DNA of 9,888 nucleotides from a virus (Duplodnaviria > Heunggongvirae > Uroviricota > Caudoviricetes): positions 1 through 9,888 of IMG/VR virus record IMGVR_UViG_2529292908_000017; one strand, written 5' to 3'. Shown one piece after another: positions 2,693 through 9,350 of this stretch. A program made the position numbers and the translations under genes. The stretch's first letter is position 1. Each line of letters begins with the position of its first letter. The notes below the pieces were generated by a model, which was not told the DNA's origin, did no database searches, and saw nothing but the letters and a program-made list of their open reading frames with translations.

Positions 2693-2896
2693 ATGAGAAA
2701 TCATACCACACACCCGCAAGGGCGGGACTCGCACGACCTGAATAAATACATCTGGCGTTTTATCGCCCTGAGCACGGCACAACCGCGCGTGATTACCATT
2801 GAGGCCACCAGCGAACAGGAAGCACGCCTGCAATCCCCGGCTGGCTGCGTGATGGTATTCGCTGCCCGTATTCGCCAGGGGTCACATCATGCGTAA
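2693..2896 (+). CDS. Small protein, paralogue A of a tandem pair; possibly Ash / Icd-like family (unverified)
   Basis: ATG 2693 preceded by GAGG (2684-2687). C-terminal motif YIWRF ... EATSEQEARLQSP ... FAARIRQGSHHA is repeated in the next gene, with synonymous third-position differences (CGT/CGC, CGC/CGT). The longer TTG start at 2564 in the ORF track has no credible RBS. Confidence 0.5.
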   Translation: MRNHTTHPQGRDSHDLNKYIWRFIALSTAQPRVITIEATSEQEARLQSPAGCVMVFAARIRQGSHHA

Positions 2897-3575
2897 AAAC
2901 CGCTTGCAAAAAATTATCACGGGGCTGTATGCTTCCCCCGTCGCCCACATGGCGACCGGGTTTAGCAGCCTGAATACATCTGGCGGACAGCCGCCCACAT
3001 CCGATAAGCGGTTTTTTTGTGTCCGTAAACCTACCCATACCCGCATTATGGCGGGGCGTAACGGGGGAGCCTTTGTGCTCGCTGGTTTCCAGATGACCAG
3101 TCTGCTAACCCTGTTACGTCTCGCCACCATGTTTAGCAGCGTAGTAGCGAGACTCCTTAAAATTCATCTGGGAGCCTTTCACATGGCTGTATTCGCACGC
3201 CCTTATTTTGTCTGGCGCTTTATGCAGTGCCTGACAGACAGTATTGCAATATTCACCGTTACCGCTGCCACTGAGCGCGAAGCACGTGCACAGCTGCCGC
3301 ACGCACATCTTATTTTTGTCGCCCGTATTCGCCAGGGGGGGGGAGTCATGCATAAAATACCCTTTGATGTTCTTGTTCATTCTGAAAACGCATTAATCCG
3401 CGCAAAGGAAATGGACGCATTACTACTTAAGTTAATTGATGTGCCGGAAAGTGGCGATGAATCTGATTCAATGATGTTTTCTGCCGTGCGTACGCTATTA
3501 ACGCCTGTTATTAATGAATTAAATACAGTGATGGCAATTCACGAGAATAATAAAGCGCAGCACAACGGAGAATAA
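2889..3575 (+). CDS. Composite ORF: N-terminal segment of unknown nature, then paralogue B (from internal ATG 3183 with GGAG RBS), read through a G9 tract into a 75-aa C-terminal segment
   Basis: Continuous 228-aa ORF; ATG 2889 overlaps the stop of the previous gene (ATGCGTAA). Residues from 3183 (MAVFARPYFVWRF ... TAATEREARAQLP ... FVARIRQGGG) parallel paralogue A. G9 tract at 3335-3343; with G10 the paralogue would end ...QGGGSHA* (compare A: ...QGSHHA*) and a separate ORF would start at ATG 3348. Confidence 0.4.
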   Translation: MRKNRLQKIITGLYASPVAHMATGFSSLNTSGGQPPTSDKRFFCVRKPTHTRIMAGRNGGAFVLAGFQMTSLLTLLRLATMFSSVVARLLKIHLGAFHMAVFARPYFVWRFMQCLTDSIAIFTVTAATEREARAQLPHAHLIFVARIRQGGGVMHKIPFDVLVHSENALIRAKEMDALLLKLIDVPESGDESDSMMFSAVRTLLTPVINELNTVMAIHENNKAQHNGE

Positions 3576-3580
3576 AAAAC

Positions 3581-3880
3581 ATGAAAAATAAAAATTCTGG
3601 CGTTACTGCCAGCGGCCCCGCTCGTCCTGAATTTATGAACGGCGATATTTACCGCGATAAATATGGCGGCATGGTAACGATTAAAGGCGTGGCAGAACGG
3701 CGCATCACCTACCGTCGTGAAGGCTACGAATATGATTGCGTGATGCCTGTTTATCAGTTTCGGCGTGATTTTTCTCTGGTACAGGCAGCGCCCCGCAGTA
3801 AACCAACCAGCAGGGAGAAAGCACGCGCCAATATTCAGGAAATAAAAAAGATGCTTAACGTATTCAGGGGTAAAAAATGA
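3581..3880 (+). CDS. Hypothetical protein (99 aa), translationally coupled to the primase
   Basis: ORF with GGAG upstream; its TGA stop (3878-3880) overlaps the primase ATG (3877-3879) as ATGA. Protein-like composition; family not recognised. Confidence 0.6.
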   Translation: MKNKNSGVTASGPARPEFMNGDIYRDKYGGMVTIKGVAERRITYRREGYEYDCVMPVYQFRRDFSLVQAAPRSKPTSREKARANIQEIKKMLNVFRGKK

Positions 3881-5625
3881 AACTGGCACCGAACGTAAAA
3901 AAACAGCCACGCGGAATAAAACACAAAGACACAGAGGTAATTATTTTCGCGGGTAGTGATGCCTGGTCGCACGCGAAACAATGGCAGGAGCAGGATGGCC
4001 CCGCATCCGGCGATAATGTGCCGCCTGTGTGGCTTGGGCCAAATCAGCTTGCCGAACTTGATGCACTGAAAATTGTTCCGGATGGGAAAAAGCGCGTAAG
4101 GCTGTACCAGGCCGGAGAACTGGATTTGGTGGAGACCAAAAAGATTGGTCAGAAGCTGGCGGCAGCAGATATTCAGGACGCAAATTTTTACCCCGAAGGA
4201 ATGCACGTCCAGAAGTGTGAAAACTGGCGGCGCTATCTGAATGCTGAGCGTGAAAATATTGCCGCAGGGCTTACCATGCCGGAGCAGAAAAATACGCAAC
4301 TGGCACAAATGGCAGACAGTGAGCGCGCGCAGCTGCTTGCCGAGCGCTTTGATGGCGTTTGTGTGCATCCTGAAAGTGAAATCGTTCACGTATGGCGCGG
4401 CGGGGTATGGTGTCCGGTCAGCACAATGGAGCTGAGCCGCGAAATGGTGGCGATCTATTCAGAGCACAGGGCCACTTTCAGCAAGCGCGTAATCAATAAC
4501 GCCGTGGAAGCGTTAAAAGTTATTGCCGAACCAATGGGCGAGCCGTCCGGCGATTTGCTGCCGTTCGCCAATGGTGCGCTTGACCTGAAAACGGGGGAAT
4601 TTTCCCCGCACACGCCGGAGAACTGGATCACCACGCACAACGGCATTGAGTACACGCCACCAGCACCAGGGGAGAACATCCGCGATAACGCGCCAAACTT
4701 TCATAAATGGCTTAAGCACGCAGCCGGAAAAGACCCGCGCAAGATGATGCGTATATGTGCCGCGCTGTACATGATTATGGCGAACCGGTACGACTGGCAG
4801 ATGTTTATTGAGGCCACCGGAGACGGCGGGAGCGGTAAAAGTACATTCACGCACATAGCCAGCCTTCTGGCAGGGAAACAGAACACGGTAAGCGCTGAAA
4901 TGACATCGCTTGATGATGCTGGTGGACGTGCGCAGGTTGTCGGGAGTCGTCTTATCGTCCTGGCTGACCAGCCGAAATATACAGGCGAAGGAACGGGCAT
5001 CAAGAAAATCACGGGCGGTGACCCCGTGGAAATTAACCCGAAATATGAAAAGCGTTTTACGGCGGTAATCAGGGCGGTGGTGCTGGCGACCAACAACAAC
5101 CCGATGATATTCACCGAACGGGCCGGAGGTGTGGCACGTCGTCGCGTGATTTTCCGTTTCGACAATATCGTCAGTGAGGCCGAAAAAGACAGGGAGCTAC
5201 CGGAAAAGATTGCGGCTGAAATCCCTGTGATTATCCGCCGATTACTGGCGAACTTTTCCGCCCCTGAAAAGGCACGGGCTTTACTCATTGAACAGCGTGA
5301 CGGTGATGAAGCACTGGCGATAAAGCAGCAAACGGATCCGGTTATTGAGTTTTGCCAGTTCCTGAATTTTCTGGAGGAAGCGCGCGGCCTGATGATGGGG
5401 GGCGGTGGCGATTCAGTGAAGTACACGACCAGGAACAGCCTTTACCGCGTCTATCTGGCGTTTATGGCATACGCAGGCAGGAGCAAACCGCTAAACGTAA
5501 ATGACTTTGGCAAGGCTATGAAGCCAGCCGCGAAAGTTTACGGACATGAATATATTACGCGGAAAGTTAAGGGAGTAACGCAGACTAACGCAATAACAAC
5601 AGACGATTGCGACGCGTTTTTATAA
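3877..5625 (+). CDS. Phage/plasmid primase-helicase, P4-family C-terminal domain / D5-like SF3 NTPase (satellite pri-rep type)
   Basis: 582-aa ORF with AGGGGT RBS. Walker A P-loop ATGDGGSGKST, followed by motifs typical of D5 / P4-alpha-type helicases (LIVLADQP Walker B-like, VVLATNN). Immediately followed by an iteron array. N-terminal ~300 aa not assigned. Confidence 0.88.
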   Translation: MKLAPNVKKQPRGIKHKDTEVIIFAGSDAWSHAKQWQEQDGPASGDNVPPVWLGPNQLAELDALKIVPDGKKRVRLYQAGELDLVETKKIGQKLAAADIQDANFYPEGMHVQKCENWRRYLNAERENIAAGLTMPEQKNTQLAQMADSERAQLLAERFDGVCVHPESEIVHVWRGGVWCPVSTMELSREMVAIYSEHRATFSKRVINNAVEALKVIAEPMGEPSGDLLPFANGALDLKTGEFSPHTPENWITTHNGIEYTPPAPGENIRDNAPNFHKWLKHAAGKDPRKMMRICAALYMIMANRYDWQMFIEATGDGGSGKSTFTHIASLLAGKQNTVSAEMTSLDDAGGRAQVVGSRLIVLADQPKYTGEGTGIKKITGGDPVEINPKYEKRFTAVIRAVVLATNNNPMIFTERAGGVARRRVIFRFDNIVSEAEKDRELPEKIAAEIPVIIRRLLANFSAPEKARALLIEQRDGDEALAIKQQTDPVIEFCQFLNFLEEARGLMMGGGGDSVKYTTRNSLYRVYLAFMAYAGRSKPLNVNDFGKAMKPAAKVYGHEYITRKVKGVTQTNAITTDDCDAFL

Positions 5626-5636
5626 TTTTTTGCAAT

Positions 5637-5865
5637 GTCTGTCTACCCTGTCTACCTGAGTAAAGAAAAATACATTTAATTCAGTATATTAACTTAGGTA
5701 GACAGCCTTTTTTCACTGTCTACCTACTATCTACCCTCTCTACCTGATTTTACCTGAATCAGACAGGGAGGTAGATACGGGGTAGATAGTGGATAAAAGC
5801 ACTCTACCCCGCTGAAAGCCGCGCCATTACTGGCATGAGAGCCAGTAAGGTAGATAAGGTAGACA
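5637..5865. repeat. Iteron array, putative replication origin
   Basis: About 11 copies of the heptamer GTCTACC / GGTAGA(C/T) in both orientations (e.g. 5641-5647, 5650-5656, 5697-5703, 5718-5724, 5770-5776, 5781-5787, 5849-5855, 5858-5864) around an AT-rich core (about 5657-5695), directly downstream of the primase-helicase gene. Confidence 0.65.
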
Positions 5866-5913
5866 AGGGGAGGCACAACTCAAAACTTTTTAAACGAGGG
5901 GGTAAAAATAAAA

Positions 5914-6171
5914 ATGCGCACATCAGGAAAACTTAATAATCAGAAGAAGCAGCATAACCGCGCCATTGACCTTACAGAGCACTGGCTGAGAGTGGCGATA
6001 AAAATCATCGACCGCAACACGGGGGAAGGATACGCGAAAGCACATCCCGACCTGATAAGCGCATTCATGACCACGGCGGCAGCAAACTTTGCCACGCTGA
6101 CAGAACGGGAGATTGCCGAAGCGGAACAGGTGACAACCATCAACGTTAAAACCGGAGAGCAGACAGCATGA
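5914..6171 (+). CDS. Hypothetical protein (85 aa), coupled to ssb
   Basis: ORF with GAGGGGG upstream; its stop overlaps the next ATG (ATGA at 6168-6171). No family recognised. Confidence 0.5.
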   Translation: MRTSGKLNNQKKQHNRAIDLTEHWLRVAIKIIDRNTGEGYAKAHPDLISAFMTTAAANFATLTEREIAEAEQVTTINVKTGEQTA

Positions 6172-6590
6172 CAGCACAGATAGCGGCTTACGGGCGGCTG
6201 GTGGCTGACCCGCAGTTAAAGACCACCAGCAAAGGGACACAAATGGCGATGGCGAGTATGGCGGTTCCCCTGCCATGCAGCCAGGCAGATGACGGAACGG
6301 CGACGATGTGGTTATCTGTCCTGGCGTTTGGCAGACAGGCCGACGCACTGGCAAAACACCACAAAGGCGAACTCCTGAGCGTGGCGGGTAATATGCAGGT
6401 GAGCCAGTGGACAGGCCAGAACGGCGAAACGCGGCAGGGCTGGCAGGTTATCGCAGACAGTGTAATCAGTGCCAGAACGGCGCGACCGGGCGGCAAAAAA
6501 GGTCAACAGGGGCAGGCTACTGACGCACTGAACAGGGCAAAACAACAGGCGGGAAATGATGATCCGTACGGGGATAACATACCGTTTTAA
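6168..6590 (+). CDS. ssb: Single-stranded DNA-binding protein (SSB-like OB fold with acidic C-terminal tip)
   Basis: 140 aa. N-terminal OB region aligns by eye with E. coli SSB (YGRLVADPQLK vs VGNLGQDPEVR; WLSVLAFGRQADALAKHHKGE vs [21 protein letters not shown]). Gly/Gln-rich linker and C-terminal DDPYGDNIPF resemble the SSB tail DDDIPF. Confidence 0.78.
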   Translation: MTAQIAAYGRLVADPQLKTTSKGTQMAMASMAVPLPCSQADDGTATMWLSVLAFGRQADALAKHHKGELLSVAGNMQVSQWTGQNGETRQGWQVIADSVISARTARPGGKKGQQGQATDALNRAKQQAGNDDPYGDNIPF

Positions 6591-6861: not shown

Positions 6862-7902
6862 ATGAGTGATTTATATTCGCCAGCCATGTTAATACAGGTT
6901 GTTAATGCCGAAGATATTCAATGGCAGATTAATTCTTTATTTATAAACCTGTTTTTTAAGCGAGTCGTTACATTTGAGACGCGGGATATTGCGCTTGATA
7001 TTATTGACGATCCAGACATCCCGATGGCTGCATTTTGTTCCCCTATGGTTGGTAGTAAAGTCTCACGCGATGAAGGCTACGAATCAAAAGTAATTCGCCC
7101 TGGCTATATGAAGCCAAAAAGTAGTATCGACCCAAATAAAATAGCCGTTCGTCAACCAGGCGTATCACCTGAACAATTCAATGCATATTCATCACGCAGT
7201 TTCAAAATAAAGCGAGCGTTAGTAAGACAAGCGCAGGCAATTCGTGCGCGTATTGAGTGGCTTGCTGTTCAGGCGGTTACAACGGGGAAAAATATCATTG
7301 AAGGCGATGGAATTGAACGTTATGAACTGGACTGGAATATAAAACCACAAAATATTATCACGCAGTCCGGCGGCACGGAGTGGAGCGGTAGAGATTTATC
7401 AACATTTGATCCAAACGATGACATCGAAGAGTACGCAGAAATCAGCGAAGGTACTACAAATATCATCGTAATGGGCCGCAACGTATGGAAAAAATACCGC
7501 GCCTTTAAAGCAGTAAAAGATTGCCTTGATACTCGACGGGGATCTAATTCCATTCTTGAAACGGCCCTGAAAAATCTTGGGGATTCTGTAAGCTTCAAGG
7601 GTTACGTTGGCGATGTTGCTATTGTGGTATATAGCGGACGTTATACCGACGAGGACGGCAAAGAAAAATATTTCCTTGATCCTGATTTGATGGTGCTTGG
7701 CAACACATCATTACAGGGCATCGTTGCCTACGGTGGCATTCAGGATCCTGAGTTAATCAGAATGGGGCTGACTAAAGCCGAACTTGCGCCGAAAAATTAC
7801 ATCGTACCAGGTGATCCGGCTATTGAATATGTGCAGACGCACAGCGCACCGCAACCAATACCGGCCCGCATCAATCGTTTTGTTACCGTTCGCATTGGTT
7901 AA
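6862..7902 (+). CDS. Major capsid protein, phage lambda gpE family
   Basis: 346 aa with AAGAGG RBS. Long colinear matches to remembered lambda gpE: NIITQSGGTEWSGRDLSTFDPNDDIEEYA (lambda NITQSGGTEWSKRDKSTYDPTDDIEAYA); FKAVKDCLDTRRGSNSILETALKNLGDSVSFKGYVGDVAIVVYSGRY ... MVLGNT (lambda FKAVKEKLDTRRGSNSELETAVKDLGKAVSYKGMYGDVAIVVYSGQY ... MVLGNT). Confidence 0.9.
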   Translation: MSDLYSPAMLIQVVNAEDIQWQINSLFINLFFKRVVTFETRDIALDIIDDPDIPMAAFCSPMVGSKVSRDEGYESKVIRPGYMKPKSSIDPNKIAVRQPGVSPEQFNAYSSRSFKIKRALVRQAQAIRARIEWLAVQAVTTGKNIIEGDGIERYELDWNIKPQNIITQSGGTEWSGRDLSTFDPNDDIEEYAEISEGTTNIIVMGRNVWKKYRAFKAVKDCLDTRRGSNSILETALKNLGDSVSFKGYVGDVAIVVYSGRYTDEDGKEKYFLDPDLMVLGNTSLQGIVAYGGIQDPELIRMGLTKAELAPKNYIVPGDPAIEYVQTHSAPQPIPARINRFVTVRIG

Positions 7903-7911
7903 GGGGGAGCA

Positions 7912-8253
7912 ATGGCTACTCATTACACTGAACTCATGGCTGGCACTGAAGCACTGGTTACTACGTTGGGGATATTTTCAGCTAATAAAGGGGTAATTCC
8001 TGCATTTACGCCACTGATGCAAGAAGATGCAACTGGTGCACTGGTGGTATGGGATGGAACGAGCGCAGGCAAAGCTGTTTATGTTTCCGCTGTACAAATC
8101 GATACAGCGACAAAAACGCAGGCTCAGGTTTATAAAACCGGCGTCTTAAATGTTGATGCTCTGAACTGGCCTGAGTCTGTAACACAACTATCAGCAAAAG
8201 TTGCTGCGTTTGTTGGCTCAGGTATTTCTGTTCAGCCGCTGGCACGTGTGTGA
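7912..8253 (+). CDS. Head decoration protein, phage lambda gpD family
   Basis: 113 aa with GGGGGAG RBS. Matches remembered gpD: TPLMQEDATGALVVWDGTSAGKAV (lambda [24 protein letters not shown]), YKTGVLNVDALNWPE (YKSGTFRYEDVLWPE), AAFVGSGISV (TAFAGTAISIV). Confidence 0.85.
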   Translation: MATHYTELMAGTEALVTTLGIFSANKGVIPAFTPLMQEDATGALVVWDGTSAGKAVYVSAVQIDTATKTQAQVYKTGVLNVDALNWPESVTQLSAKVAAFVGSGISVQPLARV

Positions 8254-8262
8254 GGTACGAGA

Positions 8263-8607
8263 ATGATTGAAAGAGATAGTCAGCTACGAGAGCTATTAGA
8301 TATCGATGACAAAATGAGTTTAAGCGAGCGCCTTGTTGATATGGATCAGGTAGTGGAGCTTACAACCCTTAGCCGTCGCACATTGCTAAACCTTGAGGCT
8401 CGCGGAGAGTTCCCCGAACGCGTACAGGTTACGAAAGGGCGCAAGGCATGGTATTTAAGCGAGGTTGTTGCGTGGATTAACAACATTCCGCGCGCATCAA
8501 ATTATTGCCTTGTTCCCACCCCCGAAAAACCTGATGCGGCGTTATGCCTCAAGATTGAACGCGCCAGGCGTAATGCCCTGAAAGGACGCAATAAGTTGAT
8601 TGGTTGA
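8263..8607 (+). CDS. AlpA/MerR-like helix-turn-helix DNA-binding protein (114 aa)
   Basis: GAGG RBS. Central segment VVELTTLSRRTLLNLEARGEFPERVQVTKGRKAWYLSEVVAWI fits the AlpA / excisionase-type HTH pattern, with N- and C-terminal extensions. Lies between the decoration gene and cos. Confidence 0.65.
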   Translation: MIERDSQLRELLDIDDKMSLSERLVDMDQVVELTTLSRRTLLNLEARGEFPERVQVTKGRKAWYLSEVVAWINNIPRASNYCLVPTPEKPDAALCLKIERARRNALKGRNKLIG

Positions 8608-8837: not shown

Positions 8838-9350
8838 ATGGCGAAAAGCTGCCGTGTAAGTGCGACAGCGTTCGACAAGTGGGGAGTAACTCCCGTTGAG
8901 CGTAAAGGCCGTGAGGCGTTTTATGATGTTGCCAGCGTGATAGAAAATAGGGTTAACAATGCAATTAGCCAGCTTATAAACGACAAAGGCGAGATTGACG
9001 ATGATGAACTTTTACGAGTCAGGATCAGATTACTGACAGCACAGGCAGAGGCGCAGGAACTTAAAAACGATCGCGATCGCGGTGACGTGATTGATACTGA
9101 GTTTTGCCTGTACGCGCTTTCAAAGCTGGCGAGTCAGATTTCATCAATCATGGACAGCCTCCCGCTTACTATGCAAAGGAGCTTCCCACAGATTACCCCC
9201 GCCATGCTGGATAGGCTTAAAAGGGAAGTGGTTAAAGCCTGTAATGCCAGTGCCAGAGTTGCCGACAACCTCCCACAGATACTGGCTGATTACTTGAAAG
9301 AAACAACCGGAAACGTACCGGAAAAGTTGCTACAGAAGAAAGGCGAGTAA
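8838..9350 (+). CDS. Terminase small subunit, lambda Nu1 family, with divergent N-terminal DNA-binding region
   Basis: 170 aa. C-terminal two-thirds matches remembered Nu1: LTAQAEAQELKNDRDRGDVIDTEFCLYALSKLASQISSIMDSLPLTMQRSFPQ (lambda LTRAQADAQELKNARDSAEVVETAFCTFVLSRIAGEIASILDGLPLSVQRRFPE). N-terminal ~45 aa only loosely similar. An upstream ATG at 8824 (MNKKTW...) is out of frame by 1 nt across an A7 tract. Confidence 0.85.
   Translation: MAKSCRVSATAFDKWGVTPVERKGREAFYDVASVIENRVNNAISQLINDKGEIDDDELLRVRIRLLTAQAEAQELKNDRDRGDVIDTEFCLYALSKLASQISSIMDSLPLTMQRSFPQITPAMLDRLKREVVKACNASARVADNLPQILADYLKETTGNVPEKLLQKKGE

Follow-up and report, generated by a model that had tools for sequence, protein, structure and literature searches.

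A mirror-arranged TCTACC repeat array downstream of rep as the probable replication origin of an EcCICFT073-type phage satellite

The 9888-bp stretch of DNA analysed here (the window) is a phage-satellite island, a PICI of the EcCICFT073 type. Directly after its rep gene, the intergenic region carries eleven copies of a short repeat, and this array is very probably the Rep-dependent replication origin of an EcCICFT073-type PICI. The observation of the repeats is real and highly non-random. Because the array is in sequence essentially the published EcCICFT073 origin, the finding itself is already known. The detail added here is modest and consists of a map of the sites, their symmetry, the position of the unwinding element, the kinship with P4, natural variants of the repeat specificity and the missing primase domain of the initiator. 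The origin lets the island multiply after induction by a helper phage, and a prediction made from sequence only coincides in this case with a published, experimentally supported origin.

The hexamer TCTACC was counted on both strands of the whole window, where 12 copies were found against an expectation of 2.21 (sd 1.58); 12 or more copies were reached in 0 of 200 shuffles. Eleven of the 12 copies are confined to 5642-5863, a stretch of 222 bp. The twelfth, at 7387, stands alone outside the array and is at the chance level for the whole window. The array lies in a gap of 288 bp between the stop of a 582-aa ORF (3877-5625), which is rep, and the start codon at 5914. The first repeat begins at 5641, 15 bp beyond the rep stop codon (5623-5625), and the last repeats end about 50 bp ahead of the start codon. 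When the sites were matched as heptamers, five copies were exact (GTCTACC/GGTAGAC) and the other six deviated in the first base only. The oriented alignment of the 11 sites yielded the repeat consensus c-T-n-TCTACC-Y of about 10 bp, and all sites of the array together span 224 bp. The sites, each supported by the hexamer count and the heptamer match, are as follows.

5641 to 5647, + strand: iteron A1, GTCTACC (core also invariant in 11 aligned islands)
5650 to 5656, + strand: iteron A2, GTCTACC (also supported by the island alignment)
5697 to 5703, - strand: iteron B, GTCTACC on the - strand
5718 to 5724, + strand: iteron C1, GTCTACC
5729 to 5735, + strand: iteron C2, ATCTACC
5738 to 5744, + strand: iteron C3, CTCTACC, the sole site without a mirror partner
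5770 to 5776, - strand: iteron D1, ATCTACC on the - strand
5781 to 5787, - strand: iteron D2, ATCTACC on the - strand
5802 to 5808, + strand: iteron E, CTCTACC
5849 to 5855, - strand: iteron F1, ATCTACC on the - strand
5858 to 5864, - strand: iteron F2, GTCTACC on the - strand

The first-pass annotation of this DNA had described a left half with mostly GTCTACC and a right half with mostly GGTAGA(C/T), and both descriptions are correct: five forward sites and one reverse site are found in 5641-5744, and four reverse sites and one forward site in 5770-5864. The arrangement is, moreover, a nested one. Ten of the 11 sites form five inverted pairs that share a single centre at 5752.5, with start-to-start distances along the array of 9, 46, 22, 11, 9, 31, 11, 22, 46 and 9. 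Five co-centred pairs were obtained in 0 of 200,000 random placements. The centre and the AT-rich spacer of the left arm are located as follows.

5752 to 5753, no strand: dyad centre, common to the pairs A1/F2, A2/F1, B/E, C1/D2 and C2/D1
5657 to 5696, no strand: AT-rich spacer (82.5% AT) between A2 and B, inside the left arm, the probable DNA-unwinding element

An AT-rich core between the two halves had also been claimed, and this part of the annotation was not borne out. The central segment 5745-5769 is 60% AT, in line with the 59% of the entire intergenic region, and the AT-rich element sits in the left arm at 5657-5696. The forward iterons A1 and A2 stand to the left of this spacer and the reverse iteron B to its right, with eight more sites further to the right. 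Duplex stability, calculated with the nearest-neighbour method for the 30-mers of the window, is lowest at 5667-5696, where dG is -29.0 (mean of the window -41.0, sd 3.7). The mirror counterpart of the spacer, 5809-5848, is only 42.5% AT. Among relatives, the symmetry is only approximate in O157-type islands, and the half-arrays stand in the reverse order in loci L076-79 and L082. Head-to-head loading around one centre can therefore not be essential in all relatives.

EcCICFT073 is the prototype Gram-negative PICI, and the origins of described PICIs lie immediately 3' of the initiator gene (PMC6092414). A temperature-sensitive plasmid carrying the EcCICFT073 pri-ori formed colonies at 44 C (Fillol-Salom et al. 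2018, ISME J, PMC6092414). The same plasmid formed no colonies at 44 C without pri and significantly fewer without ori; the deletion of ori cut colony numbers significantly, and a complete loss was not reported (PMC6092414). The primers of the published constructs were mapped to the CFT073 locus (L011). The common forward primer lies at 8198-8218 and the reverse primer of the delta-ori construct at 9980-10000. The reverse primer of the pri-ori construct sits at the opening codons of the following ORF, at about 10287-10307, where the primer as extracted and the genome align with a single-base gap. By this mapping, the deleted 'ori' corresponds to L011 10001-10307 and to 5630-5936 of the window, and includes the whole array. 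Over the deleted segment, 8 of 307 positions differ between the window and CFT073 (97.4% identity), none of them in a repeat core, and the CFT073 intergenic region after the gene annotated as 'DNA primase family protein' holds the identical eleven sites at identical offsets. Gene order, type of origin and its position 3' of pri-rep are all the same in EcCICFT073 and the window, and the window island has capsid and decoration genes of the same kind. The last 102 residues of Rep (aa 481-582) are 100% identical between the two, whereas identity falls to 69% over the N-terminal 150 residues. The reading of the array as an initiator-binding origin is thus supported, since a 97.4% identical fragment of CFT073 is needed for replication. 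A plasmid replication test, which had been suggested for this region, has in effect already been published, in cis and on the near-identical CFT073 allele (PMC6092414), and its outcome agrees with the interpretation.

The candidate initiator was analysed at the protein level with Pfam, PDB and PHROG profiles and its translation.

3877 to 5625, + strand: rep ('pri-rep'), 582 aa, with D5_N, an SF3 helicase (DUF5906) and a C-terminal Pox_D5 / P4-alpha-type origin-binding domain
5332 to 5598, + strand: Rep aa 486-574, predicted winged-helix origin-binding domain, aligned to 1KA8 residues 2-89

The SF3 helicase contains the Walker A motif GDGGSGKS in the translation. Its region aa 186-431 matches PDB 7OLA (E 9e-15), presumably SaPI5 PriRep5, a self-loading SF3 helicase-initiator. 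7OLA is mentioned in a paper on SaPI Rep helicases (PMC9371898). At the C terminus, aa 486-574 match residues 2-89 of 1KA8, the homologous origin-binding domain of P4 alpha, with E 1e-6, and Pfam Pox_D5 matches aa 485-573. D5_N, the SF3 helicase and the C-terminal winged helix are the only detectable domains. Pfam gave no match of any kind, and so no primase domain, in aa 1-160 at E values up to 10, and NCBIfam and PHROGs gave nothing informative on a primase in aa 1-150. The only match of aa 1-142 is phrog_2850, which has no assigned function in PHROG. A single-sequence AlphaFold model of the N-terminal part (alpha/beta, pLDDT 59) was searched with Foldseek, which returned nothing below E 0.017 and weak generic alpha/beta matches only. 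The first-pass annotation had placed the array directly downstream of a primase-helicase. The position stands, with the first repeat 15 bp after the rep stop. The primase label is unsupported, because the matches to 'DNA primase' PHROGs start at profile positions of about 320-350, past the primase part of those families, and the N terminus is without a known domain. P4 alpha differs in this respect, as it has 777 aa with an N-terminal primase, compared with 582 aa and none detectable in the Rep of the window. The N-terminal approximately 150 residues (3877-4326) show 44-100% identity to the window in islands where the helicase and C-terminal parts are 83-100% identical. Variable next to a conserved remainder, they behave as an exchangeable module.

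Conservation was assessed in 11 E. coli islands with intergenic regions 79-100% identical. In this alignment, 53 of 66 columns in the repeat cores are invariant compared with 41 of 185 elsewhere, and the mean column identity is 0.93 in the cores and 0.72 in the other columns (Mann-Whitney p = 4e-13). The bases that flank the core vary by subtype, with cTGTCTACC in the window and CCCTCTACC in the O157 type. Absence of the repeats from otherwise homologous islands had been named as an outcome that would refute the origin; repeats were found in every homologous island examined. Overall, about 90 related loci were compared. A homologue search with the whole Rep protein returned only sequences at least 98% identical and a scan of genome contigs gave 3 loci; the diversity was obtained instead from a scan of viral contigs with alignment, which gave 80 loci. 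All 64 evaluable viral-contig loci with a winged-helix domain of the window type or the L076 type have 9-12 copies of TCTACC. Loci with other winged-helix types have other repeats: Serratia aquatilis, the KppS-Ant element and L082/83 share CTGTTCAC(C) with P4, Morganella and six loci of L084-96 have GTGTTCAT, and seven loci of L085-95 have GTGTATACC. At the equivalent place, the P4 ori, Serratia, Morganella and KppS-Ant have an AT-rich spacer of 35-40 bp. Judged by these alignments, the layout persists across loci and the repeat sequence co-varies with the type of winged-helix domain.

Among the closely related loci of L084-96, the switch from GTGTTCAT to GTGTATACC accompanies only two consistent residue changes, T to A/N and V to M. 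They fall in a segment that reads RKERKTRGVVTN in proteins associated with GTGTTCAT repeats and RKER(RA/KN)RGMVTN in those associated with GTGTATACC repeats; the equivalent segment of the window Rep after helix 3 is YITRKVKGVTQTN. The winged-helix domain was modelled with single-sequence AlphaFold as three helices at low confidence (pLDDT 59). Owing to this low confidence, the wing was positioned from topology and homology to 1KA8. The switch segment would then follow the third predicted helix, where winged-helix domains carry the wing. The pairing of repeat type and residues in L084-L096 represents a natural specificity switch; some of these arrays mix GTGTTCAT and GTGTATACC repeats.

The order of the half-arrays varies as well. 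In the first 330 bp after rep of L076-L079 and L082-L083, the 'right' module and its spacer precede the AT-rich 'left' module, which comes about 90 bp further on. KppS-Ant and L084-96 have a second (right) spacer that is AT-rich as well. Two further conserved stretches were found in the intergenic region of the window.

5812 to 5832, no strand: conserved non-iteron block CTGAAAGCCGCGCCATTACTG, inside the right-hand 40-bp spacer, near-invariant in the 11-island alignment
5882 to 5895, no strand: conserved AAAACTTTTTAAAC, after the last iteron pair, resembling the A-run/T-run that comes behind the final inverted pair in each crr unit of P4

The block CTGAAAGCCGCGCCATTACTG is kept in most TCTACC-type loci and is recognisable in L082/83 despite their different iteron. 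Since it is conserved in L082, whose repeat differs, it is probably not a Rep site. When the right spacer was folded as DNA, the z values were -3.1 (window), -3.0 (Iso00270) and -8.1 (L076). The L076 spacer contains a perfect 13-bp palindrome. A hairpin or cruciform in the right spacer was considered as a general priming signal and rejected, as no structure was found in the spacers of the O157 type, W24 and Combat2C1. Matches resembling DnaA boxes are at chance level (17 found, 20.7 expected), and two DnaA boxes with one mismatch inside the array (5709-5717 and 5788-5796) were discarded because they are not conserved in other variants. No IHF consensus was found in the array. The search for sigma-70-like promoters in 5400-6200 gave none on the + strand and a single match on the - strand, a count at the level of the shuffles; for terminators, none was found on the + strand of the intergenic region, with counts equal to shuffles. 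The array matches no known RNA family, the C4 RNA at 3044-3131 being the only Rfam match of the window. CTGAAAGCCGCGCCATTACTG (5812-5832) and AAAACTTTTTAAAC (5882-5895) are explained neither by a promoter nor by a conserved hairpin, a DnaA site or an IHF site.

The window begins with an integrase gene (1-1242), followed by Icd-like ORFs with a C4 antisense RNA (3044-3131), a DUF4222 protein, rep and the array. After the array come an 85-aa ORF, SSB, a lambda-E-like capsid protein, a gpD-like decoration protein, an AlpA-domain protein (8263-8607, 114 aa, phrog_2790) and TerS (8838-9350, phrog_57). The two genes next to the array are listed below.

5914 to 6171, + strand: 85-aa ORF, phrog_1231, which follows the array in every E. 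coli island examined, usually with ssb next
6168 to 6590, + strand: gene of a single-stranded-DNA-binding protein (Pfam SSB, E 1.7e-15)

Every annotated gene of the window is on the + strand. The context is that of a PICI, with an integrase, an AlpA-type regulator, one gene direction and a chromosomal location. The 85-aa ORF (5914-6171) may encode a replication accessory protein. The position of the AlpA-type gene (8263-8607) downstream of the capsid and decoration genes is unusual, the norm in PICIs being a place after int. The C4 antisense RNA (3044-3131, + strand) matches Rfam RF01695 with 72.7 bits against a gathering score of 45. It adjoins the two Icd-like ORFs, 2564-2896 and 2889-3575, and together they form a P1/P7-type immunity RNA module within a PICI.

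The segment comprising rep and the array was found in 592 of 5426 complete E. coli genomes (about 1 in 9), among them those of CFT073, Nissle 1917 and O157:H7. All 649 E. coli hits lie on the chromosome. The whole window is covered to at most 83% in any complete E. coli genome. The rep-ori module, at 80-99.8% identity, occurs with three different packaging modules, in IAI39 (L001), O157:H7 (L004) and CFT073 (L011). The IAI39 array is 99.8% identical and is joined to a complete HK97-type capsid-forming (cf-PICI) head module, and in O157 strains (L004, O157:H7 Z1615) the array is joined to TerS and another capsid gene. One rep-ori module beside three packaging sets means that the repeats are linked to rep rather than to the packaging genes. 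Both the IAI39 copy and the CFT073 copy lie between roxA and phoQ. The combination of one rep-ori module with different packaging modules, including the cf-PICI head set of IAI39 at the roxA/phoQ site of EcCICFT073, indicates modular exchange between classical PICIs and cf-PICIs.

A mechanism can be proposed for the array as an origin. After induction by a helper phage, the 582-aa Rep would bind the eleven cTnTCTACCy repeats through its C-terminal winged helix. The pitch of 9 or 11 bp is close to one helical turn, which would place the bound domains on one face of the DNA. With the mirror arrangement about 5752/5753, two Rep assemblies could form face to face. The 40-bp spacer at 5657-5696 (82.5% AT), flanked by converging repeats, would melt first. 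Rep would then load itself as a hexameric SF3 helicase of 3'-5' polarity, perhaps with two assemblies opposed to each other, and the SSB of the island, encoded two genes downstream, would coat the unwound single strands. For the contact between Rep and the repeats, the site of melting, the loading of a double hexamer and the source of the primer, we infer the likely course by analogy with P4 alpha and SaPI Rep.

P4 alpha and the elements ori and crr have reportedly been described by Ziegelin et al. (1993, 1995) and Yeo et al. (2002). P4 needs both ori and crr. Its type 1 repeat, TGTTCACC, and the repeat of the window, TGTCTACC, are related octamers that differ at 2 of 8 positions, and the P4 repeat itself is used by the relatives L013, L015 and L082. 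The P4 record (NC_001609) annotates type 1 repeats in both ori and crr, and crr follows directly on the 3' side of alpha, in the same way as the array follows rep. Read in the direction of alpha, the P4 ori consists of two direct repeats, an AT-rich spacer of about 36 bp, one inverted repeat, a gap of 14 bp and three direct repeats. The left half of the window array has the same order, so that between the two the spacer measures about 36-40 bp, the gap 12-14 bp and the pitch of the three direct repeats about 10 bp. The offsets are 16+, 25+, 72-, 93+, 104+ and 113+ in the window and 38+, 48+, 92-, 113+, 124+ and 134+ in the P4 ori; those of Serratia (38, 48, 92, 112 and 123) are almost those of the P4 ori. 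The right half of the window array is a mirror image of the P4 ori plan but with a GC-rich spacer. It ends as a P4 crr unit does, with an inverted pair at a pitch of 9 bp and then an A-run/T-run. The type 2 repeats of the P4 ori have no counterpart in the window array. By the coordinates of the record, a distance of about 4.7 kb separates ori from crr in P4, whereas the two modules of the window are contiguous and mirror-symmetric.

This likeness also feeds a narrower interpretation, in which only the left module (5641-5744) is the origin proper and the right module (5770-5895) is a crr-like cis-acting helper that is bound by the same protein and does not open. We regard it as possible but doubtful. 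It accords with the repetition of the P4 ori site order in the left module at nearly equal offsets, with the location of P4 crr directly 3' of alpha and of the array 3' of rep, and with the crr-like end of the right module (inverted pair, 9-bp pitch, A-run/T-run). The opposite order of the modules in L076-79 and L082 marks them as separable units, and in the window the AT-rich spacer is found in the left module only. However, the orientations in the right module (- - + gap - -) are unlike those of the P4 crr unit (- + + gap - -). The right spacer is also AT-rich in KppS-Ant and L084-96, so both spacers could melt there. The published deletion took out both modules at once and does not discriminate between this interpretation and an origin formed by the whole array.

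Another interpretation takes the repeats as operators through which Rep or another regulator of the island controls the 85-aa ORF, ssb and the head genes, instead of or besides acting as an origin. The array fills the whole 288-bp gap up to about 50 bp before the start codon at 5914, and initiators of iteron replicons often repress nearby promoters. For such control, however, the + strand of 5400-6200 offers no sigma-70-like promoter. Gram-negative PICIs have been described as transcribed in one direction, and the phenotype of the ori deletion is one of plasmid maintenance, not of expression (PMC6092414). An operator role is accordingly improbable. That the repeats are a packaging signal, with cos- or pac-type sites for the small terminase, is a negligible prospect: the island does encode TerS (8838-9350), and terminase-binding regions also have short repeated sites close to a bendable AT-rich stretch, but near-identical arrays accompany three unrelated modules (lambda-E-like capsid with gpD, the HK97-type cf-PICI head, and TerS with another capsid), the repeat sequence follows the Rep winged-helix type, and the CFT073 study treated cos as a separate element with separate deletions (PMC6092414).

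With the array taken as a Rep-dependent origin, the observations can be combined into one reading, to which we give an even chance. The array would be a compacted P4 ori/crr, composed of a P4-ori-like half and an inverted crr-like half in swappable order, where the second half is crr-like in its position and in the inverted pair at its end. A few residues that directly follow helix 3 of the winged helix would determine the repeat specificity (TGT-NN-A-YC), and CTGAAAGCCGCGCCATTACTG, which stands in place of the second AT-rich spacer, would bind a further factor. A literature search, with the older P4 papers outside its scope, found no published link between the origin layouts of PICIs and P4. 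The copy of the P4 ori layout in the left half and a Rep without a detectable primase domain both appear to be undescribed. The match between repeat and initiator probably decides which co-resident satellites replicate each other's DNA, and the natural specificity variants could guide mutagenesis.

SaPI origins have reportedly also been described by Ubeda et al. (2007, 2012). A more recent paper places the SaPI origin immediately downstream of rep, with 6-12 short iterons that flank an AT-rich region, at least 2 per side and in opposite directions (Qiao et al. 2022, PMC9371898). SaPI Rep is described there as an SF3 helicase that loads itself and recognises the iterons through a C-terminal winged helix (PMC9371898). 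The window array has this organization, as the forward iterons A1 and A2 lie to the left of the AT-rich spacer and the reverse iteron B to its right, with the further reverse iterons D1, D2, F1 and F2. The helicase core of the window Rep is homologous to 7OLA (E 9e-15), presumably the PriRep5 of SaPI5, whereas the repeat sequence and the host lineage differ. SaPIs have the AT-rich region at the centre. The array of the window is larger and mirror-symmetric, and its AT-rich element belongs to one arm, opposite a GC-rich mirror spacer. The core origins of SV40 and papillomaviruses have short recognition sites in inverted pairs, flanked by an AT-rich tract at one side and by a different, non-AT element at the other. 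Their initiators, large T antigen and E1, are SF3 helicases with their own origin-binding domain and form two opposed hexamers. This likeness is a functional analogy only, since the sites are unrelated in sequence and differ in number, and the host and the kind of origin-binding domain differ as well. Compared with P4, the PICI origin looks like two P4-type half-origins placed head to head.
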